Shown: positions 18,086-37,772, numbered from the stretch's first letter. The stretch is 64,000 nt of DNA from Dehalococcoidia bacterium (GCA_011174795.1 DUEY01000002.1:11013-75012); one strand, 5' to 3'. Translations and numbers: made by a program. The notes: generated by a model not told the origin, from the sequence alone.

Positions 18086-18269
18086 GCAGGCTACAACAGG
18101 AAAACGGCCCTGTAGCCTATGTGCCCTTCATTCAGGAGAGCAGGCTGCTTGAAGAAGACCCACACTGGCCGGATGACTTGACGCCAGCGAGCAGTAGCTT
18201 TAACATAGCACAACACCCCTATAATAATGATATGTGGCATCCTATTCAGGATGTAAAGAGAACGATAAG

Positions 18270-19067
18270 ATGATAATTGTAGGTGAGAAGATAAACACCA
18301 GCCGCCGGAGTATTGCGGAAGCCGTCGAGAAGCGGGATACTGACTTCATTGTCGGTGTGGCGAGAGAGCAAGCCGAAGCCGGCGCTAATTATATCGATGT
18401 CAATGCCGGAACTTTTTTAGAGCAAGAGGCTGATTGCCTCTGCTGGCTGGTCGAGACAGTACAGAACAGTATAGACCTGCCACTTTGCTTAGACAGTCCC
18501 AATCCAGCAGCACTATCCGAAGCAGCAAGGCGCCACAGAGGGGAACCGATGATCAATTCAATTTCACTGGAAGCAGACCGTTTCCAGTCCCTGCTCCCCG
18601 TGGTCACTTCCCAACCCTGTCATATCGTCGCCCTCTGCATGTCCGAAACATCAATGCCTATTACTACAGAGGAAAGAGTCCAGGTTGGTTCAGAACTCAT
18701 TAAGAAGCTTACAGACGAAGGTATTCCCCTTGGAAAGATTTATGTCGACCCATTGGTACAGCCTGTTTCCGTCGATATCCAAATGGGAATAGCTACGCTC
18801 AATGCTATAACGAGGCTTATGAATGACTTTCCCGGCGTTAACACCATTTGCGGCCTTTCCAACGTCTCTTTCGGGCTTCCGGAAAGACACCTGATCAATC
18901 GCAGCTTCCTGGCTCTTTGTATGGCGTCCGGCCTTTCTGCCGTTATTCTTGACCCGACTGATAAAAAACTCATGGCTACGCTCCTGGCCGTTGACATGCT
19001 TCTGGGACAAGACGAATACTGCGAAAAATACATAGATGCCTACCAGAACGGCACTATTGCTGGATAA
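18270..19067 (+). CDS. methyltetrahydrofolate:corrinoid methyltransferase (pterin-binding, MtrH/MeTr/AcsE-like)
   Basis: MIIVGEKINTSRR...GANYIDVNAG is the pterin-binding (DHPS-like) fold of MtrH/MeTr. Start moved to the MIIVGEKIN Met by analogy with the paralog at 34253-35062. Confidence 0.75.
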   Translation: MIIVGEKINTSRRSIAEAVEKRDTDFIVGVAREQAEAGANYIDVNAGTFLEQEADCLCWLVETVQNSIDLPLCLDSPNPAALSEAARRHRGEPMINSISLEADRFQSLLPVVTSQPCHIVALCMSETSMPITTEERVQVGSELIKKLTDEGIPLGKIYVDPLVQPVSVDIQMGIATLNAITRLMNDFPGVNTICGLSNVSFGLPERHLINRSFLALCMASGLSAVILDPTDKKLMATLLAVDMLLGQDEYCEKYIDAYQNGTIAG

Positions 19068-19108
19068 TAGCCATCCTTTTCCATTTGTACAGAAAAAGTT
19101 AAAGGGGG

Positions 19109-19753
19109 ATGAAAATGGGTGAGTATAAGGCATTAAACGGGGCTGTGCTCAAGGGGGATATCAATACAGCGACAGCGGAGATGCAAAAAGCCATAGATGC
19201 CGACAAAAACGTTCAGGATATCATCGACAACGGGCTCATTGCCGCCATGGACGAGGTTGGCGAGAGGTTCTCCAAAGGGCTGCTGTTCGTACCCCAGATG
19301 CTGCGCGCAGCCAAGACTATGCAGGAGTGCATGAAACTGATCGAGCCCCTTCTTCAGAAAGGCGATGTTACCCCCAAGGGAAAGGTGCTGATTGGCACAG
19401 TCAGGGGCGACCTTCACGACATCGGGAAAAACCTCGTTTCCATGATGATGGAGAGCGCAGGATTCATGATAACCGACCTGGGAGTGGATGTCCCCCCGGA
19501 GAAGTTTGTCCAAAAGGCACAAGAAGTGGAACCGGACATCGTCGCCATGTCAGCTTTGCTCTCCACCACCATGCCGGCCATGCCCCAGACCATCGAGGCT
19601 CTGGGCAAAGCCGGGCTCAGAGCCAAAGTCAAGGTGATGATTGGCGGAGCACCGGTTACCGAGAACTACGCCCATGAAATCAGGGCAGACGCCTATGCGT
19701 CCGATGCTGGTTCTGCCGTGAGCAAAGCTAAAAAGCTACTCGGTATTTCCTGA
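19109..19753 (+). CDS. cobalamin-binding corrinoid protein (MttC/MtbC-like)
   Basis: B12-binding DxHxxG motif (DLHDIGKN), N-terminal helical cap, Rossmann-like B12 domain. Confidence 0.8.
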   Translation: MKMGEYKALNGAVLKGDINTATAEMQKAIDADKNVQDIIDNGLIAAMDEVGERFSKGLLFVPQMLRAAKTMQECMKLIEPLLQKGDVTPKGKVLIGTVRGDLHDIGKNLVSMMMESAGFMITDLGVDVPPEKFVQKAQEVEPDIVAMSALLSTTMPAMPQTIEALGKAGLRAKVKVMIGGAPVTENYAHEIRADAYASDAGSAVSKAKKLLGIS

Positions 19754-19794
19754 GCAAGCTCAAAAAGATATCTCCGTCACAAAGGAGGAGAGCT

Positions 19795-21243
19795 ATGAAA
19801 TCATTAAATATCCCCACCTTTCTCCCCCGATTAAAAGTACTGAACCGAGAACAGGCGTTAGCAATACACCAGGCTGCTTTAGAAATCCTGGAAAAGACGG
19901 GATTTAAGATGGAGCACCCCGACGCCCATCAAATGCTTGTCGATGCCGGGGGCAAGGTTACCAATGACGGTCGGCTTACATTACCTGCTTACCTTGTTGA
20001 AGAGGCCTTAAAAACAACTCCGAAACAGATCGCACTTTATGACCAGAAGGGCAACAAAACGATGCCCCTGGTAGACGGCAATCCATTCTACGGCACAGGT
20101 TCGGACGCCACATTCACCCTGGACCTGGAGACCGGTCAACGTCGGCGAGCTGTCTTAAAAGACGTCGCCAATTTCGCCAGACTGGTGGACAACCTTGAAA
20201 ATATCTCCTTCGCCATGTCTATGGCCAATCCCGACGATGTTCCCGTAGAGGATATCTATGTCTACGTTTTTGCCGAGATGATTAAAAACATCAACAAACC
20301 CATCGTATTCATTGCAGACAGCGGCAGAGACATTGCCAAGATCTACGAAATCGCCTGCCTTGTGGCAGGCGGTGAAGAGGAATTTCAGAAAAAACCGTTT
20401 ATGCTCAATTACTCGGAAGCCATCAGCCCTCTGCGCTTCCCGCAAAACGTTATGGAAAAACTCATTTTCTGTGCCCGGAAAAAGATACCGATTTGCCTTC
20501 CATCAGGCTCCAATGCCGGAGGCGGAGCCCCGATCACGATTGCCGGTGCCATGGCTTTGGGGATCGCCGAGAACCTGGTCGGGCTCGCTGTCCATCAGTT
20601 GACCAATAAGGGGGCGCCTTTCCTTTTCGGTCCCAATGTAAGCACTTTGGATATGAAGTCCACCGTAGTTTCTTACGGCTGCCCTGAATGGAGTCTCAGC
20701 CAAGCTGCCCTCGCTGATATGCGTGATGAAATGTACGGCTTGCCCACCTGGGCCTATGCCGGGGCCTCAGATGCTAAAGTAATGGATGCCCAGGCAGGAG
20801 CCGAGGCCATGTTTTCCATTATCACCGCCATGCTCTCCCGCTCGAATTTGATTCACGATGTAGGTTTCTTGGAATATGGGAATACCTCTTCGCTAGAGAT
20901 GGTGACCATGGCGAACGAACTGGTAGCCATGAGCCGCTTTTTTACCGAGGGTATCCCTGTCAACGAAGGGACCTTAGCCCTCGACGTAATAGAGAGGGTG
21001 GCCACTGGTGGCCCCGGTTCCATCTTCCTCACAGACGATCACACCTTCGATTATTTCAGGGAGGCCCAGTTTCTTCCACAGCTTCTAGACCGCTCCCGAT
21101 ACGATTCATGGAAAGAGGCCGGAGCTATGGACCTCTATACAGTCTGCAATACCGAAGCAAAGAGGATACTCTCGGAACATCAGGTCGAACCTAAAACCGA
21201 TGAGGTGCTTAACGAAGTCGATCGAATCCTTAAAGGACGCTGA
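19795..21243 (+). CDS. MttB-superfamily (trimethylamine methyltransferase-like, non-pyrrolysine) substrate:corrinoid methyltransferase
   Basis: Full-length 482-aa TIM-barrel MttB-family protein with no in-frame amber codon. Strong SD AGGAGGAG. Confidence 0.85.
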   Translation: MKSLNIPTFLPRLKVLNREQALAIHQAALEILEKTGFKMEHPDAHQMLVDAGGKVTNDGRLTLPAYLVEEALKTTPKQIALYDQKGNKTMPLVDGNPFYGTGSDATFTLDLETGQRRRAVLKDVANFARLVDNLENISFAMSMANPDDVPVEDIYVYVFAEMIKNINKPIVFIADSGRDIAKIYEIACLVAGGEEEFQKKPFMLNYSEAISPLRFPQNVMEKLIFCARKKIPICLPSGSNAGGGAPITIAGAMALGIAENLVGLAVHQLTNKGAPFLFGPNVSTLDMKSTVVSYGCPEWSLSQAALADMRDEMYGLPTWAYAGASDAKVMDAQAGAEAMFSIITAMLSRSNLIHDVGFLEYGNTSSLEMVTMANELVAMSRFFTEGIPVNEGTLALDVIERVATGGPGSIFLTDDHTFDYFREAQFLPQLLDRSRYDSWKEAGAMDLYTVCNTEAKRILSEHQVEPKTDEVLNEVDRILKGR

Positions 21244-21257
21244 TACGAAGTAGAATC

Positions 21258-23306
21258 ATGGGAAATAGCCTGCCATTATACAGACCACTAACCCCGAAAG
21301 ATGTCCAGCACATCGACCAAGCTGGGCGCCGAATACTGGAACGCATCGGCATCAGTATCTATGACAGTAAATTCCTCGACATTCTGAAAGCAGCAGGAGC
21401 TCAGGTAGATTACGACAATCAGAGAGTACGCTTTCCAGGAGACTGGCTTGATGAAGCTCTGGGCAAAGCCCCCTCTCGCTTCACGCTATACTCTCGAGAT
21501 GGTCGAAATGACCTTCATCTAGGAGAAGGCAACGTCTACTTCACCAACGGAGGCCGGGTATTTCGAATTCTCGACATGGGAACAAGCAATTACCGCTACA
21601 CCATGATAAGACATGTGGCACGTACTGCCGCCCTCGTGGAGCACCTGGAGCACATTCGACTTTATATCATTGCCTGTCAGGCTCACGCTCTTGAACCTCA
21701 AATATATCATTTGAACGATTTTTTCCACGCCTTCAACCATACTACGAAACATGTAATGGGAGGCTGCGATAACCTGGCAGGCGCTGAACAGGTATGGGAA
21801 CTCGCAAGCTTTATCGCAGGAGGAGAGGGTAAACTTAAAAAAAAGCCCTTCGTCTCGGTAATCACAAATATGATAAGTCCCCTTACTATTGAGACGAAAG
21901 CACTGAATATACTCGACTTTTGCACGAAACATGGTATACCCACTACATGCGCACCTGCGCCTATCGCCGGAGCCACCTCGCCCGCAACCCTGGCAGGGAC
22001 ACTTGCCCAGATGCATGCTGAAGCCTTGGCAGGAGTTGCCCTGACACAGGTGTTCGCCCCCGGCGCCAAGGTGCTCTATGGAGCTGTTCCCACGATAATG
22101 GATTTGCGAAAAATGGACTTCACAATGGGCTCGGTGGAAATGGCGATGATGAACGCTGCCGCAGTCCAACTGGCGAAGCTCTACAACCTGCCTATCTATG
22201 CCTCGGCCGGAGTCACCGAGGCTAAAAGACCTGACATTCAGGCTGGCTTCGAAAAGACCTTTTCCGATTTGCTCGTGGCTATGGCAGGGGCGGATTTCGT
22301 CCACCTGGCTGCCGGAATGCTGGATTCAGGGAATACCATTTCCTATGAACAGTATGTCATAGACAACGAGATTATCGGAATGGTTCAGAGGATACTGGCG
22401 GGCATTAAAGTGAATAAGGGTACGCTAGGACTGGATATAATCGAGAAAGTTGGGCCCGGCGGGAACTATGTCACGGAAGATCACACCGTCGAACATATGA
22501 TGGATGAATTCTTCTACCCCGCGTTAAGCGTGCGATTAAACTTCGATATATGGGAGGAAAGGGGACGTCCCAGCATATTAAGCCGCGCTAAAGACAAAGC
22601 GCAAGAAATCCTGAAAGACAGCAAAGAAGGCCTCCTGGAACCAGACCTGGTCGCTGAGATAGAAAAGGCTTTCCCCGCTATACAAATGTCAATTACAAAA
22701 TCGCCGACCAGGGCCAAACAAGCTACACGTATTATAGCTTGCATGGTTTTCAAACCTGTCCTCGATCATCTTCAATTGGAAAAAAGATATCGTAACCTGC
22801 GTATAACCTACCTGCCAGCCAACCTGCATATGAACCCGCAGAAGTTAAAAAACTACCTGCTGAAACAGATAGCCGCAGCTGAGAAAAGAAACGAGCGAAT
22901 CATATGCCTTTACGGGGACTGCTTTCCAGATATTGACGACTTTTGCGAACAGCATGGAGCAATGAAAGCTCCTGGGACTCACTGCTATGAAATGCTTCTG
23001 GGGAGTGATCAATTCAAGCAGCTTACTGAAGAAACGGCAGGTACCTATTTTCTGGAGAAAGAACTTATTCTCAACTTCGACGAATTTTGTATTCAGCCCT
23101 TGGAACTCTATGATGAAGAAATGCGAAAATATTGCTTCGAACACTACAAGAGGCTGCTCTATGTGAGGCAGCCCTCAGACCCGGATGTCACGCCCCAGAC
23201 AAAAGAACTGGTTGAATTCTTAGAGTTGCCTCTGGAGATTAGAAACGCTGATTATTCAGATCTCGAGAGGAAGTTAATCAAGTTAATCGAGCCTAGACTT
23301 CTTTGA
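21258..23306 (+). CDS. MttB-superfamily methyltransferase fused to a C-terminal ~200-aa Cys-containing domain of unknown function (DUF1638-like by recollection)
   Basis: The N-terminal ~480 aa are colinear with the other MttB paralogs. Unrelated extra C-terminal domain (CLYGDCFPDIDDFC...HCYE). Confidence 0.8.
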   Translation: MGNSLPLYRPLTPKDVQHIDQAGRRILERIGISIYDSKFLDILKAAGAQVDYDNQRVRFPGDWLDEALGKAPSRFTLYSRDGRNDLHLGEGNVYFTNGGRVFRILDMGTSNYRYTMIRHVARTAALVEHLEHIRLYIIACQAHALEPQIYHLNDFFHAFNHTTKHVMGGCDNLAGAEQVWELASFIAGGEGKLKKKPFVSVITNMISPLTIETKALNILDFCTKHGIPTTCAPAPIAGATSPATLAGTLAQMHAEALAGVALTQVFAPGAKVLYGAVPTIMDLRKMDFTMGSVEMAMMNAAAVQLAKLYNLPIYASAGVTEAKRPDIQAGFEKTFSDLLVAMAGADFVHLAAGMLDSGNTISYEQYVIDNEIIGMVQRILAGIKVNKGTLGLDIIEKVGPGGNYVTEDHTVEHMMDEFFYPALSVRLNFDIWEERGRPSILSRAKDKAQEILKDSKEGLLEPDLVAEIEKAFPAIQMSITKSPTRAKQATRIIACMVFKPVLDHLQLEKRYRNLRITYLPANLHMNPQKLKNYLLKQIAAAEKRNERIICLYGDCFPDIDDFCEQHGAMKAPGTHCYEMLLGSDQFKQLTEETAGTYFLEKELILNFDEFCIQPLELYDEEMRKYCFEHYKRLLYVRQPSDPDVTPQTKELVEFLELPLEIRNADYSDLERKLIKLIEPRLL

Positions 23307-23350
23307 TAGTCAGAGCTTTTCAAACGAACCGTAGCCGGTCTTAAGCGGAT

Positions 23351-25306
23351 ATGGGAGTTAATATGAGGAAACATCAATTGGAAACGCCACAGCATGAAAA
23401 ATTTAGGAGAGGAAAACGCCCTATTGGAACCTCCGTGCTGAAAAAAAGTAGAACACAATACGTCTGGCTGAATGTTCTACCCGATGACCTCTGGCTGAAG
23501 GTTCGCCAGGGGGAAACTGTCTGGGGAGCTTTGAAAAGAGAAGGGGTTGAACTGGAAAGCGACTGTGGCGGACTGGGTAAATGCGGTAAATGCAAAGTGC
23601 GTGTCCTCTCTTCGATAGGGCCTCCATCTAAGGAAGAAGAAGAACTCCTCGATGAGGAGGAGTTGAAACAAGGCATCCGCCTCGCCTGCCGCACCGAAGT
23701 AGACAAAGACTTTGTGATTCATACCGAAGAAACCGATTTCGAGGCTGAGTATTTTCAGATTCTCAAAACCGGCCATCGGCCTTTTTTCCATACCCAGCCA
23801 CTTATAAACAAGCGGTTAATAACCCTGCCCCCAGATTTATTGGACGAGGGGATATCCGAGATGGACCGGATTAAAATGGTGATGGTCCCCGAATATCAAG
23901 ACCTTGTAGCCCCTATCCACTGTCTCCGTACGTTACCCGAAAGGCTAGATGCAACTGATTACCATGGAGCGGCAGTGCTCCATGAGAACTCACTGCTGGC
24001 CTGGCAAGACTGGGAGGAAGTGGACTGCCACTTCGGATTGGTCTACGACCTCGGTACCAGTACACTGGTGGGCAAGCTAATCAGTCTGATAGACGGAAGC
24101 GAAGTCGCCGTAGTCTCCTGCCTCAATAGCCAGATGAAGTACGGCTCAAATGTTATCAGTCGGCTCAAATACCTGCAGGACCATGCCAACGGCCTCGAAA
24201 GGTTCCATAACCTTCTCATCAATGACTTGAACCGCATCACTACACGCCTATTAAAAGCAGCCAATCTTCAGCCGAACGACGTTTTTATCGCCGTTGCGGC
24301 GGGTAACACCACCATGCAGCATTTTCTTCTTACACTGGACCCTTCAGGGATCGCCGAAGCGCCGTTCTCGCCTGTATTAACCGACGGGCTGATTGTGGGA
24401 GCAGCAGCCGTTGGCCTCGAATTGCACCCTGAAGCCCTCTGCTATGTGATGCCAACCAAATCCGGTTATATCGGCGGAGATCTAATCAGCGTCATCCTCA
24501 CCTCTGGAGCCTGGGAACAGGAGGATGAAATTATATTGGGGCTGGATCTTGGCACCAATGGAGAAATATTTCTCGGCAACCACAAGAGACTCCTGACATG
24601 CTCAGCTGCCGCCGGCCCTGCCCTCGAGGGCGCAACAATCTCACACGGGATGATTGCCAAGGCTGGAGCTATAGAAGGCGTCAGCGTAGAAGCGGACAAT
24701 GTGAGCTATCAGATCATCGGGAATATAAAGCCCAAAGGAGTTTGTGGGAGCGGACTGGTCGATTTAGTCGCAGTGTTGTTACATTGCGGCTATATAAACC
24801 ACGAAGGCCTGCTCCGTCCACCCCGTAAAAATAGAATAGAGAGCCTGGATTCAAAAATGATCAAGCGGGCAGGAGTTTATGAATTCCTCATCGCGTCCGC
24901 GGAGGAAAGTTATAGCAGTAGACCTATGTACCTCACGCAAAAAGACATTCGAGAACTCCAACTCGCCAAAGCTGCCGTAGCAGCCGGTATACAAATTTTA
25001 ATGAACGATATGGGCATCGTCACCGAGGACATCAAACACGTTTACCTCGCCGGTGCACTCGGTAATTATGTAGACCCGTTGAGTGCCATACGTACCGGTC
25101 TTATTCCTAGATTTAATCCAGAAATTGTCACGTCATTGGGCAACGCCGCCAGCACGGGGGCTTCAATGGCCCTTTTGTCCAAGAACTACTGGCGGATGGC
25201 TAACGAGCTTTCAGACTTCATCGAGCACGTTGAGCTTTCCTCTCGCCTCGACTTCAATGAATTTTTTGTCGAGAACATGGATTTTCCTAAAGGTAATATA
25301 TGGTAA
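23351..25306 (+). CDS. reductive activator of corrinoid enzymes (RACE/RamA-like ASKHA ATPase with N-terminal 2Fe-2S ferredoxin domain)
   Basis: N-terminal plant-type ferredoxin motif CGGLGKCGKCKV, followed by an acetate/sugar kinase-like ATPase domain as in corrinoid activases. Confidence 0.8.
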   Translation: MGVNMRKHQLETPQHEKFRRGKRPIGTSVLKKSRTQYVWLNVLPDDLWLKVRQGETVWGALKREGVELESDCGGLGKCGKCKVRVLSSIGPPSKEEEELLDEEELKQGIRLACRTEVDKDFVIHTEETDFEAEYFQILKTGHRPFFHTQPLINKRLITLPPDLLDEGISEMDRIKMVMVPEYQDLVAPIHCLRTLPERLDATDYHGAAVLHENSLLAWQDWEEVDCHFGLVYDLGTSTLVGKLISLIDGSEVAVVSCLNSQMKYGSNVISRLKYLQDHANGLERFHNLLINDLNRITTRLLKAANLQPNDVFIAVAAGNTTMQHFLLTLDPSGIAEAPFSPVLTDGLIVGAAAVGLELHPEALCYVMPTKSGYIGGDLISVILTSGAWEQEDEIILGLDLGTNGEIFLGNHKRLLTCSAAAGPALEGATISHGMIAKAGAIEGVSVEADNVSYQIIGNIKPKGVCGSGLVDLVAVLLHCGYINHEGLLRPPRKNRIESLDSKMIKRAGVYEFLIASAEESYSSRPMYLTQKDIRELQLAKAAVAAGIQILMNDMGIVTEDIKHVYLAGALGNYVDPLSAIRTGLIPRFNPEIVTSLGNAASTGASMALLSKNYWRMANELSDFIEHVELSSRLDFNEFFVENMDFPKGNIW

Positions 25307-27870: not shown

Positions 27871-28719
27871 TTATACAGTTACCTGCATGCCATCGTAAGC
27901 AAAGCGTATCCTCTTATCTTTTGACTCCAGGGCCTGATAGTCATCGTAACTGCGGTTCCAGTACTCCTCAAGGTGAACGAAGAGAACCTTCTTAGCCCTT
28001 ATGCGTCCAGCAAGCTCGAGGGTCTGCTCAAAGGTGTAGAGTGTCATCCTGGAGATATGATCGGCCGGATACCTGAAATTGTGTTTCAATCCCTCCTCGA
28101 ATATCCCCGGCTGGATAATCAACAGGTCGGCCTGCTGAACCTCGCCCCTGTGCTCAGGGAAGGGCTTGATATCGCAGGGGGCATAGACCACCTTGCAGCC
28201 CGACTGCTCGAAAACATAAATAAACGACAACTGAGAATCACGGTCAACCGGTATAGCAGTAACCTGAATATCTCCAATCCGGACTTTTTCCTGAAAGGTC
28301 TCCAGCCTGATAAAACCGCTCTCCTGGTAAAAGTCGAGCAGTGGCCCATACTGTGAGCGTATCTTCCTTAATGGCTCACGCAGCTCCTCGGGGAGCAGCA
28401 GGCAAATCTGCTTCTCTGGATAAGCACGCCAAGTACGAAAATCAAGCGAAATCTGTTCTACTACACGGAATCCCTCCACGTGGTCAGGGTCGAGATGAGT
28501 GAAAGTCAGGTAGTCGACACGACGTATAGCTGAACGGTTCAACAGTGTTATAATCTCAGCCGGGGTATCGATTAACAGGTTGATATCATGCAATAAAGCG
28601 GAGGGGCCTGCCCTAGCATAGGGAACACCCCTCTTCCTAGCTTCCCGGCAGACCCGGCAGCGGCACAGGGGCTTGGGGATGACCATACACCCCCCGGAGC
28701 CCAATATTGTGAATTCCAT
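27871..28719 (-). CDS. MBL-fold metallo-hydrolase
   Basis: Metallo-beta-lactamase motif THLDPDHVEG (HxHxDH-like). Confidence 0.7.
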   Translation of the reverse strand: MEFTILGSGGCMVIPKPLCRCRVCREARKRGVPYARAGPSALLHDINLLIDTPAEIITLLNRSAIRRVDYLTFTHLDPDHVEGFRVVEQISLDFRTWRAYPEKQICLLLPEELREPLRKIRSQYGPLLDFYQESGFIRLETFQEKVRIGDIQVTAIPVDRDSQLSFIYVFEQSGCKVVYAPCDIKPFPEHRGEVQQADLLIIQPGIFEEGLKHNFRYPADHISRMTLYTFEQTLELAGRIRAKKVLFVHLEEYWNRSYDDYQALESKDKRIRFAYDGMQVTV

Positions 28720-28767: not shown

Positions 28768-30357
28768 TCAGTGCACATGTTTCAAGTCGCCATCCATCGT
28801 GCCCCTCACCTTCTCCCTCTCCTCGGCAAAATCGAAACCCGTCCAGATTCCGATTGAACCAAGCACCGAGTCCTGAGGATGGTACTTACGGAAGATTTTA
28901 AAATAGTATGCCGCTTCCCGGCTGTTTATCTTCGCCAAAGGATTCTCAGCCTTGATGCGCTCGAAATCATCCTCACTTATTTCACTGTGAGCCAGCTTTT
29001 CCCCAAGGTCTTCGCAGCCCGCTCCCTGTGTGTACTGCACCTTGTAGCGCCATAGTATATCGTCGGGGAGGTAACCGGTATCTTCAAACGCCTTGCGCAG
29101 AATCCACTTCTCTATCCTATCCCCGACATATTCAGACTCACGAATCTTGAGCTCGGGAGGAATCTTCATAGCGAGGTCGACCATAGCTACATCCAAGAAA
29201 GGCACCCGTAACTCCAGGCTGAAGTACATCCCCATTCGGTCCGCACGCTGCAGGTTTATATTATGGAGATTGCCGATGCAGCGCCTCGCCTCCTTATTGA
29301 GAACATCAATGGGATAATGCTTCATATAGTGATAGCCCGTGAATATCTCGTCCGCCCCCTCACCTGTGAGCACCACCGTCACGTAATCGGCAGCCAGCTT
29401 GCAGGTGAAATAACAGGGAACGGCACAGCGTACAAGTGAAGGATCGTAGCTCTCAAGCTCCTTTATAACAATCGGCAGCGCCTCATAGTATTCATCCTCG
29501 GTAAATATCAACTCGTGATGTGTTGAGCCAATATGTTTTGCCGCAATACGGGAGGCCTTAAGGTCATCGCTCTCATCGCCGGATTCATCCTTCATGCCCA
29601 CCACGAAGGTGTGAAGATGAGGTATCTCTTCAGCAGCTATTGCAGCCACCAAGCTGCTGTCCAAACCGCCACTGCAGAAGGAGCCCACATGGATCTCCTT
29701 ATCCGACAACAACCTTTTCTTAACCGCCCGAATAAACGTTTCCCTGATTTTCATACAGGTCTGGTCTATATCCGTCAACATATGATCTTCGATAGGCGGA
29801 ATCTCATAGTACTGTACAAACCCCTCCTTAGGGGTGTAATAGTGCCCGGCGGGAAACTCATGACACTCCTCCACACCAGCCAGCGTCATAGCACCGAGTT
29901 CCGAGGAGAAATAAAGCTTGTCCTCAACATAGCCATAGTAGAGGGGTTTAATACCGATAGGATCGCGGGCCAGCATAAAATCATCACCATCGAAGATGGC
30001 AAATGCGAACATACCATCGAGTTCTTCTACACACCGAGGTCCTTTCTCTCGGTAAAGATGAAGAATTGATTCAGTATCCGACTGGGTCAGGAACTCGTAT
30101 TTAGAGATGAGCTTCTGCCGTAACTCCCGGTAGTTGTAGATTTCACCATTACAGATTATCCCCGTCCTTCCACCATTTACCAGAATGGGCTGATGGCCTT
30201 TAGCAACATCGACAATAGACAGCCTGGTGTGACCAAATACCGTGTTGTTGAAAGTATGGAGTCCGCGGTCATCTGGCCCTCGATGAGGCAGTGCGTCCAG
30301 CATTCGATTGATTGTCTTTTCGTCTCTGGTGCCAAAACAACCTGCTATGCCACACAT
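28768..30357 (-). CDS. asnB: asparagine synthase (glutamine-hydrolysing) family protein
   Basis: N-terminal MCGIAG Cys nucleophile, RLSIVD glutamine-binding motif, PP-loop SGGLDSS. Confidence 0.85.
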   Translation of the reverse strand: MCGIAGCFGTRDEKTINRMLDALPHRGPDDRGLHTFNNTVFGHTRLSIVDVAKGHQPILVNGGRTGIICNGEIYNYRELRQKLISKYEFLTQSDTESILHLYREKGPRCVEELDGMFAFAIFDGDDFMLARDPIGIKPLYYGYVEDKLYFSSELGAMTLAGVEECHEFPAGHYYTPKEGFVQYYEIPPIEDHMLTDIDQTCMKIRETFIRAVKKRLLSDKEIHVGSFCSGGLDSSLVAAIAAEEIPHLHTFVVGMKDESGDESDDLKASRIAAKHIGSTHHELIFTEDEYYEALPIVIKELESYDPSLVRCAVPCYFTCKLAADYVTVVLTGEGADEIFTGYHYMKHYPIDVLNKEARRCIGNLHNINLQRADRMGMYFSLELRVPFLDVAMVDLAMKIPPELKIRESEYVGDRIEKWILRKAFEDTGYLPDDILWRYKVQYTQGAGCEDLGEKLAHSEISEDDFERIKAENPLAKINSREAAYYFKIFRKYHPQDSVLGSIGIWTGFDFAEEREKVRGTMDGDLKHVH

Positions 30358-30426: not shown

Positions 30427-31908
30427 TTATGCATTATCCAGGAAGAAAGCCGGCCTGAAAGGATCCCACCTGCCTACTAACCTATCGAAGGCAGGATCGG
30501 GGAATGTCTCCTTGAACATCCGGTAGTAATACAACTCCTCAACTGACGACAACCAGGGGGTATCCTCGGTCCTGTTGTGTTCTGCCAGGTCGATTGATGA
30601 GAGGTGCTTCTCAGCCTCCTCACGCATAGCATACGCTACACCAGAGCCCTGAGCGAAGAACCGCTTCGTCTGGTAGATGATGTGGTCGGGCAAACAACCC
30701 TCAAAGGCCTGTCGCAGGACCCACTTCCCCGTCTGCTCAGGGCCATGAATCTTGCAACTTAGTGGGATCTTCAGACAAAAGTCCATCACCCTTGCATCGA
30801 GGAACGGTGTGCGGCTTTCATACGAATTCGCAGCATTCAGTCTATCCAGCCGTTGTAGTGCTGTATTATGAGCAACATTGATAAGCTGGTCGACTATACT
30901 GGCGATCTCCTCAAGGTTTTTTCCCTGCCTGAACTGGCCGTCATACCCGGCTAAGAACTCATCAGCCCCTTCCCCAGTAAGAACGCACTTAGCATGCGGG
31001 CTGACAAAGCGCCCTGCCAAGAAATTGGCGATTGCACCGTGTACACAGCTTTCCTCATACATCTCCTGATGATAGATGGCCAAAGGCAGTATCTCGCTTA
31101 TCTCTTTTTCGCTAAACATCAAGATATGATGCTTAAGGCCAAGGTACTCCGTCACATCCTTTGCCAGCGGCAGGTCCTGCCCCTCCTCCATACTCACCGT
31201 AAAGCATTCGATATCCGGCTTTACCTCGTGGGCCATATAGGCAATAAGGCTGCTGTCCAGACCGCCACTCAGGAGGATACCTTTTACAGCGTTGTCCCTC
31301 ATCCTCTTTTCAGTTGCTTCCATTAAAAGCTGCTTTACCACTTTCTTGGCTTGCTCATAATCCTCGAAATCCGGTGTTTCGACGGCCTCGGAAGTCGGAT
31401 ACTTCTGGAATCCCAGTTCGCGGGAGTAAACGTATCCGGGCGGGAACTCCCTGACATCTCTAGAGATGCCCACCAGTGCTTTTGCCTCAGATGCAAAGCA
31501 CAGGCTCCCATCACTGTTATGCCCGTAGTATATCGGTTTAATACCAGCCCAATCACGAGCCAGTATTAGCTTGCCATTATCCGACACGGCACAGGCAAAG
31601 TCGCCGTTTATCTTAGCGGCAAAGCGGGTGCCGAACCTGACGTACAGGTCAAGCACAGCCTCAGCGTCGGCTTTAGTTCCCTTATCCGAATTGTAAACAC
31701 GCCCATCGAGAACGACCGCTACCTTGCCGTCAGAGGTATAATGGGAGCCATCCCTGCAGTCTGCACCCATATTCAGCTCATTGCAACCTACATTCACCTC
31801 GCCTTCGCGGCTCGTCCAAGTCTCGTGAGGGCCTCTGTGCTTGATCCGCTCAAGCATTCGGTCTAGCTCACCGTTATCAGCACCCTGAACTCCCGCTATT
31901 CCTGCCAA
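30427..31908 (-). CDS. AsnB-family ATP-dependent amidoligase with degenerate glutaminase domain (Cys1 replaced by Ala; beta-lactam-synthetase-like architecture)
   Basis: The N-terminus is MAGIAG (no Cys), and the glutamine-binding RLSI motif is replaced. The PP-loop SGGLDSS is retained. Confidence 0.75.
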   Translation of the reverse strand: MAGIAGVQGADNGELDRMLERIKHRGPHETWTSREGEVNVGCNELNMGADCRDGSHYTSDGKVAVVLDGRVYNSDKGTKADAEAVLDLYVRFGTRFAAKINGDFACAVSDNGKLILARDWAGIKPIYYGHNSDGSLCFASEAKALVGISRDVREFPPGYVYSRELGFQKYPTSEAVETPDFEDYEQAKKVVKQLLMEATEKRMRDNAVKGILLSGGLDSSLIAYMAHEVKPDIECFTVSMEEGQDLPLAKDVTEYLGLKHHILMFSEKEISEILPLAIYHQEMYEESCVHGAIANFLAGRFVSPHAKCVLTGEGADEFLAGYDGQFRQGKNLEEIASIVDQLINVAHNTALQRLDRLNAANSYESRTPFLDARVMDFCLKIPLSCKIHGPEQTGKWVLRQAFEGCLPDHIIYQTKRFFAQGSGVAYAMREEAEKHLSSIDLAEHNRTEDTPWLSSVEELYYYRMFKETFPDPAFDRLVGRWDPFRPAFFLDNA

Positions 31909-31978: not shown

Positions 31979-32653
31979 CTACTGGTAGGCGTCCAGTACC
32001 TTAACAGCATCGAAGCCATCCACACAATAGGCATCCGCCCCTATCTCGCTGGCGTACTCATCGGACACCGCTGCCCCACCAATGAGAACCTTAACCTTGT
32101 CCCTGAGGCCACTCTCCTCCAGCGCCTTAATTACATTACCCATGACTACCATCGTGGTTGTCAGTAGAGCGGACAGCCCCAGATACTGAGGCTTCTCTTC
32201 CCTGACGAACTCAACAATCTTCTCCGTGGGCACATCTATACCCAGGTCATGCACCTCGTATCCCGCCCCTTTGAGCAAAATGGACACAATGTTCTTCCCG
32301 ATATCGTGTATATCACCCTGAACCGTGGCTATAGCGAATTTCCCCTTGGTCTCCACATTAGAAGCTTCCAGATGCGGCTTGAGCACATCCATGGCTGCGC
32401 CTACCGCCTCGGCAGAGGCAAGCATATCGGGGATGAAGTATTCCTTCGTAGAGAATTTCTCACCTACCACCTGCATCCCCGCAGTCAAACCCTCCGTGAT
32501 TATCACCTGCGGTGAGATACCCTTATCCAGAGCCTCCTTCGTCAACTCAAGAACACCGGGACCCGTGAGTTCCTCATCTATCCCTTCATCTTCCTCGGTT
32601 TTTCTTCCCTGGATAACGTTCTCCTTCATTGCCGCAATAATGTCCTCGCCCAT
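31979..32653 (-). CDS. cobalamin-binding corrinoid protein (second copy)
   Basis: DxHxxG motif (DIHDIGKN). Paralog of the 19109-19753 protein. Confidence 0.8.
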   Translation of the reverse strand: MGEDIIAAMKENVIQGRKTEEDEGIDEELTGPGVLELTKEALDKGISPQVIITEGLTAGMQVVGEKFSTKEYFIPDMLASAEAVGAAMDVLKPHLEASNVETKGKFAIATVQGDIHDIGKNIVSILLKGAGYEVHDLGIDVPTEKIVEFVREEKPQYLGLSALLTTTMVVMGNVIKALEESGLRDKVKVLIGGAAVSDEYASEIGADAYCVDGFDAVKVLDAYQ

Positions 32654-32655
32654 TT

Positions 32656-34197
32656 TTATCTCCTTTCCTCATATACGTTTAGTCTCGGCAACAAGCCGGG
32701 AATCTCCTGGAATATCTTAGCTGTTGTAGCCTTATCAATATGCTCTACCGGCTTCTCCAGGAGTTCCTGCATCCTGTCATATGCTATTTTAAATACGCTG
32801 TCCGTCTCCCCATCACCCTCAAAGGGATAGGGCGGCGAGAGTTGCCCGCTACGCATAACCTTGCGGATATAGCTGATATAAAGCTTCTGTGGTGTCGTTA
32901 CGACCTCCCGTATCTGCTTCAAGACCTCAGCAATCTCAGTTTCGTCAATACGCGGCGGCCTTAGGAAAAACTTAATCATCTGGAAGTGGGCATCATCCAG
33001 CACAGCCTGAAGAAGGCAGAAAACGGAATTGCAGTCAAGCAGACCGTATGCGCAGTGCAAGTACTGGGGCCCGCTCAAGGTAACCAATATGTCTGAGAAT
33101 AAACGCTCTATCGATGCTTGCTGTCCGGGCGTCTTCGTATCACAGACGCCCGCAGTCGAATAGTTAGGTATCCTGTAGAATCGCGCCATCTGGACGCAGT
33201 CGACATTGTACTGGCTGGTTTCAACAGCACCGTAGGAATCGCCGAGGGTATCCATGCGAGCCCGAACGGGGACGCTTCCATAAATGACCGGCGTACCCTT
33301 ATTTACCAGCTGACTCAAGGTTATACCCGCTAGAACCTCCGCGTTTATCTGAGCCATGATACCTGCTTCCTTGATAGGAGCGGTGCTCCCCGCCTGGGGT
33401 GACGAAGAAACCACCAGTGGCAGTCCCCTTCGGCAAATCTCGATAAATGTATCCGTAGTGTCCTCGACAAATTGCAGGGGGCTCTTGACCAGACAGGTGA
33501 TGAAGGAGATGATGGGATTCTCCCTAAGCTCTTCCTCCCCACCCACTATTATCTTCGCCATATTCACAACATTATCTAGTTGCTTCAGGCTGGTTAACCC
33601 CGACATAAAATGCTTGGTGTTATTATTCAAAGAGGCGAAATATTTATTGACGTCCTTATTCTCCTCTGTTATGTCCCTATCCTGAATGTTAACTGTACGG
33701 ATGTAGCCATCCACAGTCTCCAGATGCTCACAGACATGTGCTGACTTGCAGAGGTCAGCCACAGTACCGCGTCGCGGGTGGAACTCAGGCACCTGAATCT
33801 CCGTAGCAGGGTCGGATTTCTTCACATAGGTCGGGAAATCGACATCCAGCCAGATATTGGTTTCAGAGCCCGTGATAAAACGTACCCTTGGCTCTTCGCC
33901 ATCCAGTATCAGCATGTTCTCGGGATTCCTAGCGCCTAATTTAACCGTCTTGGGTGCGCTATCGAGGGCCTCGATAACTACCTTCTCCGGGATTCTCACC
34001 AGCCAGCACGGATGGTCGCTGGGGGAAACCGGCGTAACCTCCGCACCTTTGCCATCGAATATCTCAGCGGCCTCACGATTGAAAGACATCAGGCCAGGGT
34101 CGCTCAATATCTCTATGGAAGCCTGGTGAATCTGTTCCACCTGCTCTCTGGTCATCCTTTCGTAAGGCTTCTCAACTAAGATTCCTTCCCTAGGCAC
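32656..34197 (-). CDS. MttB-superfamily methyltransferase (non-pyrrolysine)
   Basis: 513 aa, colinear with the other MttB paralogs, uninterrupted ORF. Confidence 0.85.
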   Translation of the reverse strand: MPREGILVEKPYERMTREQVEQIHQASIEILSDPGLMSFNREAAEIFDGKGAEVTPVSPSDHPCWLVRIPEKVVIEALDSAPKTVKLGARNPENMLILDGEEPRVRFITGSETNIWLDVDFPTYVKKSDPATEIQVPEFHPRRGTVADLCKSAHVCEHLETVDGYIRTVNIQDRDITEENKDVNKYFASLNNNTKHFMSGLTSLKQLDNVVNMAKIIVGGEEELRENPIISFITCLVKSPLQFVEDTTDTFIEICRRGLPLVVSSSPQAGSTAPIKEAGIMAQINAEVLAGITLSQLVNKGTPVIYGSVPVRARMDTLGDSYGAVETSQYNVDCVQMARFYRIPNYSTAGVCDTKTPGQQASIERLFSDILVTLSGPQYLHCAYGLLDCNSVFCLLQAVLDDAHFQMIKFFLRPPRIDETEIAEVLKQIREVVTTPQKLYISYIRKVMRSGQLSPPYPFEGDGETDSVFKIAYDRMQELLEKPVEHIDKATTAKIFQEIPGLLPRLNVYEERR

Positions 34198-34252
34198 GTT
34201 ATTCCTCCTGATTAACTCAACAATTAGCAGAGCCCTGGTATCTATATCGCGG

Positions 34253-35062
34253 CTACTCTACCAGCAGGCCCTTCCTGTGAGCCCTGATAAAGCCTTTACA
34301 CGATGGGTCATTCCCCGTAAGCATATCAGCAACCCTGATGAAACTCATCATCCTAGCATCCAGTGGGTTCAGAATAGCGGCATCGAGCCCCGCAGAAGCT
34401 GCCATTACAAGAAAGGCACGGTTGACCAAACCCCGGTTCGGCAATCCGTAAGAGATGTTGCTGAGCCCGACCACAGTTTTTGCGGAAGGATAACGGGACT
34501 TAATCCCCTCAATAGTCTTCAGCGTGACGAACCCCTGGTTAGAATCTACAGAAACGGGAAGCACCAGAGGGTCGAAGAATATCTGCTCCTCCTGCATCCC
34601 CAGACGAGTCAAGTGCACCATGATCGACTCAGCAGCGTCGAGACGCTCGTCAACGGTGGGAGGGATTCCCCCCTCTCCCATAACCAGCGCCACCAGCGAA
34701 GCCCGGCGCTCCGCTGCTAATCTACCCACAGGTTCCAGCCTGTCAGGCTCGGCATTGACCGAATTGATCATCACATTGTCACCACGGTATTTACGCAAGC
34801 CAGCCTCAATAATGGAGGGAGTATCGCTATCAATAGCCAGCGGCTTCTCCGTTACTGACTGAACGATATCCACTAACCACTCCATCGCCATCGCAGGATT
34901 CTCCCAGGTGCCGTGGCCAACCCCAGCGTTTACATCTATGAAATCGGCCCCGGCAGCATCCTGCTCCCTAGTAAGGTTCTCCAGGAACTCCTGATTTTTA
35001 TTCGATATTGCCTCACCAACCGACTTGTTGGAGGCATTTATCTTCTCACCAATTACTAGCAA
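34253..35062 (-). CDS. methyltetrahydrofolate:corrinoid methyltransferase (MtrH/MeTr-like), second copy
   Basis: MLVIGEKINASNK...GADFIDVNAG. Paralog of the 18270-19067 protein. TTG start. Confidence 0.75.
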   Translation of the reverse strand: MLVIGEKINASNKSVGEAISNKNQEFLENLTREQDAAGADFIDVNAGVGHGTWENPAMAMEWLVDIVQSVTEKPLAIDSDTPSIIEAGLRKYRGDNVMINSVNAEPDRLEPVGRLAAERRASLVALVMGEGGIPPTVDERLDAAESIMVHLTRLGMQEEQIFFDPLVLPVSVDSNQGFVTLKTIEGIKSRYPSAKTVVGLSNISYGLPNRGLVNRAFLVMAASAGLDAAILNPLDARMMSFIRVADMLTGNDPSCKGFIRAHRKGLLVE

Positions 35063-35078
35063 CTTTCTACACTCCCAT

Positions 35079-36521
35079 CTACGATTCTACGATGCCTTTT
35101 ATCTCAGACAACACTCTGGCTCTTATGTCAACAGGCAAGCTATAGCCGTCTTTTGCCAAGATATCATCCACCCTCGCCGCCGCCCTCTCCCATGTTTTCT
35201 TAGCCCCTCCAGCCTCCCAATCCCCTCGGCTATTCCTATCGCTGAGCGCAGGCTGATAATGTTGATCTCGCATAAACCGCCTGGTATGCTTGGCGGAAAC
35301 GAAATTACCCCCCGGCCCCACCTCCTTAATGAGGTCAAAGGCCATCGTCTCCTCGTTCACCTCTATACCCTGAACAGCCCTCATCACCATCCCCAGTATC
35401 TCGTTATCCACAACATATTTCTCATAGCATGCAGTCAGAGCAAACTCCATAAGACCTGCAGCGTCGTGGATATAATTTGCGCCAGCCAGAGCATTGAGAA
35501 GTCCAGTGATAGCAGACTCATATCCGCTCTGTGCATCCACAACCTTAGCGTCAGTCATGCCTCCGGTGGAATAGAAGGGGAGCTGGTAAAACTGCGCCAT
35601 CTGTGCCCCACCCGCGTTAATGAGGCCCATCTCAACAGAGCCAGCCAGATAATTGAAGTTACTGAGGTCTGTGCTCGTTGCCACCGAGCCCAGAATAACA
35701 GGCGTCCCCGGACTCGCGAGTTGGGTAAGCATCACGCCCATCAATGAGTCTACTGTTTGCATTAATATATTACCGGCGAGCGTCACCGGCGAGGTAGCCC
35801 CACAGAGCGGTTCTGCGGGGCAGACCACAGGTATGCCGCTTCTTGCGATAGCTATCATAAAGTCGCCGTACTCTTTGTCTATCTTCAACGGGCTTATGGT
35901 ACAGGCTATCATCGATATAATAGGACGCTGGCGAAGGCTATCGGCAGAACCGGCGATAATCTCCGCCATCTTTATCACCTGCTTCAGACCATCCATGGTA
36001 TATAGCCCGCCCATAACATGCTTGCTGGTATTGTCCAAGCCTGCGAAGAAGCGATTTATGTCCACCTGCTCTATTGGCAAATCGTTAGGGTATGTAGGCA
36101 GCAGGAAGAAGTGGATATTATCCAGGTGGTCAACCAGCTTGGCGATGCACCTCAGGTCATCCAGGGTGGCAGGTGTCTTTTCACCCGTAGCCTGCCGAAA
36201 GATGTTCAGGGCAGTCCCCCCCGTCCCTGCATAGACACGAGTTCCACCCAGATGAAGATCGTGCTTCTCCTCTTGACCGCAGAGCGTTATCTCAGACGGC
36301 GCCATCTCTATCAGTTCCATCGCCTTCTCAGTTGGTAAACGCACCAGCCTCTTTTCGTCATCCACCAAAGCCCCCGCCCTCCTGAAAAGGTCCAGTCCGT
36401 TATCGGAATGAACCTGAAAGCCTACTTCCTCGATTACTCTCATGACATTCAGGTGCATCATCTGAATGCCCTCTTCGGTAATCGGCTTAAAGCTGCCGCC
36501 GGGTAATCCCCTCCGTATCAT
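35079..36521 (-). CDS. MttB-superfamily methyltransferase (non-pyrrolysine)
   Basis: Start set at the internal Met preceded by a strong SD (AGGAGGTG), which avoids a 62-nt overlap with the upstream gene. 480 aa. Confidence 0.8.
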   Translation of the reverse strand: MIRRGLPGGSFKPITEEGIQMMHLNVMRVIEEVGFQVHSDNGLDLFRRAGALVDDEKRLVRLPTEKAMELIEMAPSEITLCGQEEKHDLHLGGTRVYAGTGGTALNIFRQATGEKTPATLDDLRCIAKLVDHLDNIHFFLLPTYPNDLPIEQVDINRFFAGLDNTSKHVMGGLYTMDGLKQVIKMAEIIAGSADSLRQRPIISMIACTISPLKIDKEYGDFMIAIARSGIPVVCPAEPLCGATSPVTLAGNILMQTVDSLMGVMLTQLASPGTPVILGSVATSTDLSNFNYLAGSVEMGLINAGGAQMAQFYQLPFYSTGGMTDAKVVDAQSGYESAITGLLNALAGANYIHDAAGLMEFALTACYEKYVVDNEILGMVMRAVQGIEVNEETMAFDLIKEVGPGGNFVSAKHTRRFMRDQHYQPALSDRNSRGDWEAGGAKKTWERAAARVDDILAKDGYSLPVDIRARVLSEIKGIVES

Positions 36522-36528
36522 ATAGGTT

Positions 36529-37203
36529 TCACCTCCTGCCCAGACAATCGTATTTACGACAGGTTTCACAGGGATTGTAATTCTTCGCACCGCTATCGGG
36601 CGTACTTATACCAATAATACCTGAGATTGACTTTTGGGGAACCATAAGATAACCCTCGGTAAGTTGAACCCCTATCGAATCTCCTTCCAAAGCCGTAAAA
36701 ACCATCTCCTGCTGACTTATGTCCCAGTCACAATAGCCTGGGCTGAAGCGCCGACTGGTAACAAGTCCCTCAACCCTGGCTTTGTCATCCAGAATCCCCT
36801 TAACGAAATCTGCTAATTTTTCGACTGCATCTGACCCTATTGCATCCAGAACGTACGACTGAAGTATAAGCCCGTCTTCAGCCAGCCTATTAGCCATTTC
36901 CTCAAGATATTTCCCTATTGTTACTACAAATAACGCAACCTTACAACACCTGTCCAGCAGGCGAGCAATAACCTCGCCGTTAAACACGATCGACCCTTCA
37001 ATATAGATGTTAGAGCCCACCACCTGCTCGATATCCCTGATAATATATACGTACAACGGCTCGATTAGATTGTGAGCCTCTCCCATATATTCTTTAATCA
37101 AAGAAGAAATACGCAACGATGGTTTAATGCCATTGCGATATCCCAGATGGCGACACACGTTTTTTCTATCGATTTTTATATCTATATGATCGCTAGTAAC
37201 CAT
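36529..37203 (-). CDS. standalone vitamin-B12-dependent methionine synthase activation (reactivation) domain homolog
   Basis: RRFSPGYCDWDIS and LTEGYLMVPQKSISGIIG align with E. coli MetH RPAPGYPACPEHT and LTESFAMWPGASVSGWYF of the AdoMet-binding reactivation domain. Confidence 0.7.
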   Translation of the reverse strand: MVTSDHIDIKIDRKNVCRHLGYRNGIKPSLRISSLIKEYMGEAHNLIEPLYVYIIRDIEQVVGSNIYIEGSIVFNGEVIARLLDRCCKVALFVVTIGKYLEEMANRLAEDGLILQSYVLDAIGSDAVEKLADFVKGILDDKARVEGLVTSRRFSPGYCDWDISQQEMVFTALEGDSIGVQLTEGYLMVPQKSISGIIGISTPDSGAKNYNPCETCRKYDCLGRR

Positions 37204-37586: not shown

Positions 37587-37667
37587 TACTAAGTCAATAC
37601 TCACCACGAAGGTTCACACTTGCATTCCGACCTGATTTGATGTATACTAAAGTCAAACCGAATATGG

Positions 37668-37757
37668 AACCGCTGGGGGAGCTCAGAGGCTGAGAGTCCG
37701 CCAAGGCGGACAACCCTTGGAACCTGACCTCGGTAATGCGAGCGTAGGAAAGCGGGA
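37668..37757 (+). ncRNA. TPP (THI-box) riboswitch
   Basis: CTGGGGGAGC..CTGAGAG...ACCCTTGGAACCTGACCTCGGTAATGCGAGCGTAGGAA matches the THI element consensus (CUGAGA, ACCCUUUGAACCUGAUCUGGUUAAUACCAGCGUAGGGAA). Confidence 0.85.
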
Positions 37758-37772
37758 GCTTCGAAGAAGAAA

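Follow-up and report, generated by a model that had tools for sequence, protein, structure and literature searches.

Anaerobes use corrinoid methyltransferases to turn over methanol, methoxylated aromatics, and quaternary amines, glycine betaine among them. In the prevailing account, these enzymes are repaired by ATP-dependent RACE/RamA proteins, and repair that depends on S-adenosylmethionine (AdoMet) is seen as a peculiarity of methionine synthase. The nearest characterized relative of the protein described here is TM0269 of Thermotoga maritima (PDB 1J6R), which we take to be the stand-alone activation subunit of a split methionine synthase, TM0268, and which was reportedly studied by Huang et al. 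in 2007 (as cited in PMC7857596). Here we report on ACT, a 224-residue protein encoded at the head of an operon, locus 2, in a 64,000-nucleotide stretch of DNA from a Dehalococcoidia bacterium (GCA_011174795.1 DUEY01000002.1:11013-75012). This whole stretch is referred to below as the window, and positions are counted from its first letter. Locus 2 runs on the minus strand from 37203 to 31979 and consists of five closely packed genes, ACT, MttB2a, MtrH2, MttB2b, and CoP2, in that order (Table 1). An initial annotation, made by a model from the sequence alone, had listed an activation protein, an MttB, an MtrH-like protein, a second MttB, and a corrinoid protein; this gene content and order were confirmed by Pfam when the window proteins were annotated by Pfam and NCBIfam profile searches.

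ACT matched the Pfam family Met_synt_B12 (PF02965), the activation domain of cobalamin-dependent methionine synthase (MetH), with 35.3 bits against a gathering cut-off of 25 (E value of 1.1e-8), bearing out the earlier proposal that the 224-residue protein is a homolog of this domain. A sequence search of the PDB retrieved 1J6R (TM0269) with an E value of 3.7e-8 for the single sequence and 3.4e-10 for the family profile. The AlphaFold2 (AF2) model of ACT, predicted from an alignment of 119 homologs that included a MetH-linked branch, had a predicted local distance difference test score (pLDDT) of 91.2 and a predicted template modeling score (pTM) of 0.88, while the 21 close homologs alone gave a pLDDT of 48. 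When this model was searched against the PDB with Foldseek, the 19 best matches were all MetH activation domains, the next match having an E value of 8e-3. TM0269 ranked first (E value of 1.4e-13, TM score of 0.83) and was followed by the activation domains of Thermus, Escherichia coli, and human MetH with E values of 1e-10 to 1e-7.

Alignment of the ACT family profile with residues 897 to 1227 of E. coli MetH by hhalign gave a probability of 90.6% (E value of 1.3e-6). It paired ACT R152-F-S-P-G156-Y157 with R1134-P-A-P-G1138-Y1139, E128 with E1097, and LMVPQKSISG with AMWPGASVSG (P189-x-K-S-x-S-G with P1173...S1176-x-S1178-G1179), in agreement with the PGY-type and other motifs that had been quoted as matching MetH. 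In E. coli MetH, the RxxxGY motif binds AdoMet, and Y1139 and E1097 lie over the cobalamin in the reactivation complex. Among 142 diverse representatives, that is, ACT family sequences sharing no more than 50% identity, R152, G156, Y157, and E128 were kept at 89 to 99%. By profile hidden Markov model, fold, and AdoMet- and cobalt-facing residues, ACT is confirmed as a true MetH activation-domain homolog, and it is predicted to bind AdoMet.

ACT resembles TM0269 in being a separate polypeptide of similar size (224 and 214 residues, respectively) and in its R-x-S-P-G-Y motif and P-x-K-[ST] strand. The two differ in that the partner of TM0269 is a truncated MetH, whereas ACT heads an operon of MttB, corrinoid, and pterin-binding proteins, and in that TM0269 has Gly at the position of Cys158 and lacks the C-terminal CxxCx4C motif of ACT. 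With the MetH activation domains of E. coli, human, and Thermus (1MSK, 6BM5, 2O2K, and 8SSE), ACT shares the fold, the RxxxGY motif, and residues corresponding to E1097 and Y1139, but it is approximately 100 residues shorter, is not fused to a B12 domain, is 15 to 18% identical, carries a four-Cys motif, and is partnered with another class of substrate methyltransferase.

The other parts of locus 2 are those of MttB-superfamily systems such as MtgBCA, which acts on glycine betaine, and the MtpB, MtcB, and MtyB systems. All components of a non-pyrrolysine (non-Pyl) MttB system were found by Pfam and NCBIfam: an MttB-fold methyltransferase, a corrinoid protein with the DxHxxG motif, and a pterin-binding methyltransferase. 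In the literature found, the characterized systems of this superfamily have RACE-type activators and a PF02965 protein is not mentioned, whereas locus 2 has ACT. The RACE/RamA/RACo proteins share with ACT the presumed job of bringing Co(II) corrinoid proteins back into catalysis. They differ in that RACE is an ASKHA ATPase with a 2Fe-2S domain that drives the reduction with ATP, and ACT is an AdoMet-binding-type domain in which the reduction would be pulled by methylation. No literature was found (the search mostly covering work outside subscription journals) that links PF02965 or the activation domain with MttB, with non-MetH corrinoid methyltransferases, or with Dehalococcoidia, nor, within the same coverage, any describing activation proteins with a Cys or Fe-S motif.

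MtrH2 scored 291 bits against the NCBIfam model NF005719 (methyl-tetrahydrofolate:corrinoid methyltransferase; cut-off of 259), and CoP2, which carries GDIHDIG, scored 210 bits against TIGR02370. The NCBIfam metH model (TIGR02082) matched MtrH2 over its positions 344 to 592 (109 bits), CoP2 over 663 to 839 (157 bits), and ACT over 1051 to 1171. Because separate segments of the metH model match these three proteins, the description of the locus 2 parts as a split MetH, MttB substituting for the homocysteine barrel, was a fair one. The solved structures nearest to MttB2a were the glycine betaine methyltransferase MtgB (2QNE/9YCE, E value of 2e-81) and MttB (7XCL); MttB2b matched 2QNE with an E value of 9e-39. 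The two proteins are 29% identical and scored 449 and 279 bits against the equivalog model TIGR02369, under its cut-off of 525. The Pyl-equivalent position is Met in MttB2a and Met or Val among the MttB proteins, and the open reading frames (ORFs) are uninterrupted, with no in-frame UAG. The Rfam model PYLIS_3, the pyrrolysine insertion sequence of mttB, matched within MttB2a at 35459-35558 on the minus strand (53.6 bits against a gathering score of 38), and MttB2a was rejected as a pyrrolysine gene. Since the UAG of the model aligns to AUG (the Met of STGGMTDAK) and the ORF is uninterrupted, this match reflects coding-sequence conservation in a non-Pyl MttB.

ACT and MttB2a are likely to be translationally coupled. 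The terminal codons of ACT, GGC AGG AGG TGA, form a Shine-Dalgarno sequence 7 nucleotides (nt) before the ATG of MttB2a, so that the conserved C-terminal Gly-Arg-Arg of ACT coincides with the coupling signal. The MttB2a ORF is open from a GTG at 36590, the ATG at 36521 being the likelier start and giving 480 residues. In other genomes, the orthologous MttB genes begin 10 to 15 nt past the ACT stop codon.

A scan of one genome per species identified at least 574 genomes with an ACT relative, and the best 80 were almost all from Dehalococcoidia. The window proteins were mapped by tblastn onto these 80 loci (individual loci are given L-numbers), of which 71 had at least 1.5 kb of sequence downstream, 46 at least 8 kb downstream, and 32 at least 8 kb upstream; the counts below refer to these subsets. 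An MttB2a ortholog lay no more than 150 nt downstream of ACT in 70 of the 71 species-level loci. The usual order was ACT-MttB2a-[MtrH2]-[CoP]-MttB2b-CoP2-AsnB-like(-AsnB-like-MBL), where MBL is a metallo-beta-lactamase-fold gene. A pterin-binding gene was present in 28 of the 46 operons and absent from 18, and an AsnB-like gene followed the operon in 39 of the 46. No RACE gene was found inside any of the 46 ACT operons, nor was DUF1638. Position at the head of an MttB operon is a widespread, conserved trait of ACT in Dehalococcoidia. The arrangement is not an oddity of this genome.

Several operons (L001 to L003, L011, L027, and others) had an extra corrinoid protein instead of the pterin-binding gene (ACT-MttB-CoP-MttB-CoP), and some had both. 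The Dehalococcoidia ACT genes do not lie beside a cobalamin-dependent methionine synthase: neither the 64-kb window nor the 10 kb around ACT in 85 Dehalococcoidia loci contained a homocysteine methyltransferase (S-methyl_trans) domain. The remainder of the window encodes housekeeping functions and lacks a methionine synthase. A 1,204-residue ORF (41576-45190) was considered as MetH and proved to be a GH130-containing protein.

The 21 close homologs of ACT share five invariant cysteines, C86, C158, C212, C215, and C220. Among the 142 representatives, C158 was conserved in 86% and C212, C215, and C220 in 93 to 94%, with C86 at 51%. C158 directly follows Y157; its counterpart is P1140 in E. coli MetH and Gly in TM0269, and the alignment with TM0269 stops short of the C-terminal CxxCx4C motif. 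In MetH-linked relatives, PGYG replaced PGYC, CxxCx4-5C was retained, and a fourth Cys was often added 7 to 8 residues on. An extra tail Cys was present in 21 of 38 Gly158 forms and 9 of 224 Cys158 forms, an odds ratio of 30 that is descriptive, the sequences being pooled and related. A four-ligand metal site whose fourth ligand had moved would produce this pattern. The conservation suggests that C158 and C212-x2-C215-x4-C220 together make up a four-Cys site for a metal centre, whether Fe-S or Zn, and points to a putative, unstudied route of B12-protein repair. The motif is new, being absent both from the initial annotation and from the characterized versions of the domain.

On balance, we favor, with some reserve, the explanation that ACT is an AdoMet-dependent factor dedicated to reactivating the corrinoid protein or proteins of its own operon, recruited from methionine synthase to an MttB-family system. 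In the normal cycle, MttB2a or MttB2b would load a methyl group from a methylated amine onto CoP2, and MtrH2 would hand it to tetrahydrofolate. CoP2, like the extra corrinoid protein of many orthologous operons, would occasionally drop to inactive Co(II). ACT would then dock on the B12 domain of CoP2 as in the reactivation conformation of MetH, with Tyr157 and Glu128 (E. coli Y1139 and E1097) over the cobalt. A single low-potential electron would reduce Co(II), and the methyl group of the bound AdoMet would trap the cobalt as methyl-Co(III) and so bring it back into the cycle. We infer both the docking on CoP2 and the source of the electron. ACT would act independently of RACE, with which it would make a plausible contrast.

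A bolder proposal, possible but in our view doubtful, is that the four-Cys site binds [4Fe-4S] and that ACT is a self-contained reductive methylase, an ATP- and flavodoxin-independent counterpart of RACE in thousands of anaerobe lineages. In the reactivation complex of MetH, the cobalt is covered by the Tyr that immediately precedes Cys158, a placement that would keep a cluster within electron-transfer distance of the cobalamin. An electron would pass from ferredoxin or an oxidoreductase to ACT and on to Co(II), and AdoMet would then trap Co(I).

Several observations weigh against ACT as the dedicated reactivation factor of its operon. The function is assigned from sequence, fold, and synteny. 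The PF02965 match is partial, covering profile positions 123 to 247 of 273. Among solved chains, the ACT family profile reached TM0269 only and no canonical MetH directly; it took Pfam, hhalign, and Foldseek to connect ACT with E. coli MetH. The operon contains no gene for an electron donor, be it flavodoxin or ferredoxin. AdoMet-dependent repair is dearer than one ATP per event, and its advantage over RACE is not obvious. The sole RACE gene of the window lies approximately 6.7 kb from locus 2, and in L005, L019, L020, L052, and partly L049, a RACE/DUF1638-type cluster, ordered MtrH1-CoP1-MttB1a-MttB1b-DUF1638-RACE, is the immediate divergent neighbor of ACT. Such a cluster adjoined ACT in 3 of the 32 species genomes with sufficient upstream sequence, plus one metagenome contig. 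L005 and L020 have ACT beside the RACE-equipped cluster and no MttB2 operon, leaving a single methyltransferase cluster flanked by both RACE and ACT, a layout that sits poorly with strict either/or use.

The statement that locus 2 uses an activation-domain homolog instead of RACE accordingly stands in part. Within operons, ACT and RACE/DUF1638 are mutually exclusive (RACE in 0 of 46), which fits the idea of alternative accessory proteins; within neighborhoods they are not, a RACE cluster neighboring ACT in several genomes, twice with no MttB2 operon. These neighborhoods speak for cooperation between ACT and RACE, in which the locus 1 RACE would supply an ATP-driven electron to both loci and ACT would serve as an AdoMet methyl trap or as a chaperone for the conformation or loading of CoP2. 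It is general knowledge that the MetH activation domain itself is never the electron source, and the 18 operons that have no pterin-binding gene of their own already depend on genes elsewhere. We nevertheless consider cooperation unlikely, though a serious competitor, because no RACE gene was present in the upstream flank of 29 of the 32 loci or in the downstream flank of any of the 46, and because the conserved four-Cys site suggests that ACT may own a redox or metal centre. The literature, moreover, treats RACE/RamA as a reactivation module that works alone, without AdoMet (PMC5764234, PMC12478193, PMC9768040). PF02965 and RamA-like proteins have been handled as alternative B12 reactivation modules for MetH (PMC5764234), and MtgBCD-type systems have RACE and DUF1638 as their reactivation pair (PMC12478193, PMC9768040).

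ACT might instead be catalytic, AdoMet methylating the corrinoid protein at each turnover and an MttB paralog donating the methyl group in a biosynthetic pathway, perhaps with the AsnB-like and metallo-beta-lactamase-fold proteins. The constant parts of the operon are ACT, two MttB proteins, and a corrinoid protein, the methyl-tetrahydrofolate module being dispensable; AsnB-like genes follow most of the operons, and the low identity of the MttB pair means that their roles could differ. This is nonetheless improbable, given that the MetH activation domain is generally known to meet cobalt only in the rare reactivation conformation and that the ACT relatives paired with MetH have a repair role there. 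The characterized MttB-superfamily members, moreover, are all reported to demethylate amines onto Co(I) (PMC8604678, PMC13080624, PMC12155760). Still less credible, to the point of being highly improbable, is an incidental co-location, with ACT reactivating a methionine synthase or a methionine-synthesis corrinoid protein whose gene lies in another part of the genome. TM0269 and several other family members do serve a truncated MetH, and our view of the genome spans 64 kb only. The adjacency of MttB2a in nearly every genome, the overlapping translation signals, and the lack of a homocysteine methyltransferase domain in the window and in the 85 loci with 10-kb flanks all argue against it. The reading of ACT as a dedicated reactivation factor is the one that we retain.

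The second methyltransferase locus of the window, locus 1, is convergent with locus 2 and comprises MtrH1, CoP1, MttB1a, an MttB1b-DUF1638 fusion, and RACE. That it includes a RACE ATPase, as had been claimed, was corroborated by Pfam; no locus 2 gene matched the ASKHA ATPase (RACo_C_ter, DUF4445) and Fe-S domain in Pfam. The distance of 4 kb given for the two loci holds in one sense only: from the end of RACE to CoP2 it is 6.7 kb, and it shrinks to 4.1 kb once locus 1 is taken to include the 2-oxoacid:ferredoxin oxidoreductase genes. These alpha and beta subunit genes (25300-27857, plus strand) begin 7 nt within the end of the RACE gene, an overlap that suggests that RACE is supplied with low-potential electrons in a coupled manner. 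Linkage of an oxidoreductase beside RACE was not seen in the other mapped loci. MttB1b and DUF1638 form a single ORF of 682 residues here (21258-23306, plus strand) and are two adjacent genes in L005, L019, L020, and L052. Genetic evidence implicates DUF1638, whose function is unknown, in B12 reactivation (PMC5764234).

The loci were also correctly called paralogous. MtrH1 and MtrH2 are 39% identical, CoP1 and CoP2 48%, and the four MttB proteins 26 to 38%. Across genomes, MtrH2-type genes had a mean identity of 64% to MtrH2 and 40% to MtrH1, and MtrH1-type genes had 74% to MtrH1 and 40% to MtrH2; MtrH1 and MtrH2, and likewise CoP1 and CoP2, each fall in their own ortholog group. The separate ortholog groups and low cross-identity indicate that the two loci are old paralog sets, which bears on the question of duplication raised in the initial annotation: they did not arise by recent duplication.

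Table 1. Features of the two corrinoid methyltransferase loci and of the genes following locus 2, in window positions
Feature	Position	Strand	Basis
ACT, 224 aa, stand-alone MetH activation-domain homolog	36529..37203	-	Pfam, 1J6R match, AF2/Foldseek, hhalign
R152-F-S-P-G-Y157-C158 codons (RxxxGY AdoMet motif and Cys158)	36730..36750	-	Alignment to E. coli MetH
C212-x2-C215-x4-C220 codons (C-terminal Cys motif)	36544..36570	-	Homolog conservation
ACT/MttB2a junction, GGC AGG AGG TGA aacctat ATG	36519..36540	-	Direct sequence reading
MttB2a, non-pyrrolysine MttB-superfamily substrate:corrinoid methyltransferase, 480 aa	35079..36521	-	Pfam MTTB, 365 bits
MtrH2, pterin-binding methyl-corrinoid:tetrahydrofolate methyltransferase	34253..35062	-	Pfam Pterin_bind, 75 bits
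MttB2b, divergent second MttB-superfamily member	32656..34197	-	Pfam MTTB, 197 bits
CoP2, corrinoid protein, cap and Rossmann B12 domain, DxHxxG	31979..32653	-	Pfam B12-binding_2 and B12-binding
Two AsnB-like amidotransferase genes	31908..30427 and 30357..28768	-	Pfam; syntenic with operon
Metallo-beta-lactamase-fold gene	28719..27871	-	Pfam; syntenic with operon
Locus 1: MtrH1, CoP1, MttB1a, MttB1b-DUF1638 fusion, RACE	18234..25306	+	Pfam, NCBIfam AcsV/RamA-type models
RACE, Fer2 (2Fe-2S) with RACo middle and C-terminal ASKHA ATPase domains; only RACE gene in window	23351-25306	+	Pfam

The conserved gene block probably extends past CoP2 through the two AsnB-like genes and the metallo-beta-lactamase-fold gene, to 27871. 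The AsnB-like paralogs differ at the N terminus, one beginning MCGIAG with the Cys2 nucleophile and the other MAGIAG without it. No cobalamin or S-adenosylmethionine (SAM) riboswitch was found in the approximately 460-nt leader upstream of ACT, and promoter and terminator scans gave no excess over shuffled expectation. The sole riboswitch upstream of ACT is a thiamine pyrophosphate (TPP) riboswitch (37665-37767, plus strand; 70.9 bits) that precedes the divergently oriented thiC-thi4 genes. The listed thiC ORF, which opens with a TTG at 37717, begins inside this riboswitch, so its true start must lie farther downstream.

A word-indexed search found 1,148 close relatives of ACT, nearly all of them unnamed or labeled hypothetical; one protein, 99% identical, belongs to a Dehalococcoidia metagenome-assembled genome at NCBI. 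Searched exhaustively with a profile, a database of 1.84 billion cluster representatives yielded 7,658 clusters (50% identity) with an E value of no more than 1e-3, 5,144 at 1e-10, and 469 at 1e-30. In Bacillota, relatives lie directly upstream of a MetH of approximately 800 residues that has no activation domain of its own (L087; L089, Desulfohalotomaculum tongense; and L090), an arrangement that parallels the TM0268/TM0269 precedent. A Cys158-type homolog precedes a different MttB in L086, and in L088 and L091 homologs are encoded with no obvious partner gene. With such varied neighbor systems, the ACT family seems to provide corrinoid proteins in general with a stand-alone partner, MetH being one client among several.

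In L094 (4827-7687) and L095 (351-7708), a Marinilabiliaceae locus and a related contig, Cys158-type homologs were found in loci resembling those for glycan utilization. Their neighbors encode URO-D/MtaA-like methyltransferases, a corrinoid protein, a stand-alone S-methyl_trans protein of approximately 295 residues, CobW, and a rhamnosidase and other glycoside hydrolases; these loci may carry out corrinoid-dependent demethylation of methylated sugars. In L092 (296-1477), a homolog lies beside a lone 108-residue B12-binding_2 (cap-only) protein and adjoins a ribosomal protein operon.

Together, these data reveal a family of stand-alone activation proteins with unstudied properties: it is large, and its members are wired into non-MetH methyltransferase operons and carry a conserved four-Cys site next to the loop that faces AdoMet and cobalt. 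Both homology and synteny are solid, and the mechanism that we propose from them would extend the AdoMet route of repair to a second major enzyme class. If it is correct, ACT would be an accessory factor lacking so far when MttB-family enzymes of uncultured Dehalococcoidia are reconstituted in vitro, and it would be a concrete candidate for the delivery of repair electrons in anaerobes without flavodoxin. Were the site to bind [4Fe-4S], one activator would serve MttB-type, MtaA/URO-D-type, and truncated-MetH systems alike. The annotation of metagenomes would be affected as well, in that ACT-type genes are now labeled hypothetical or mislabeled as methionine synthase.

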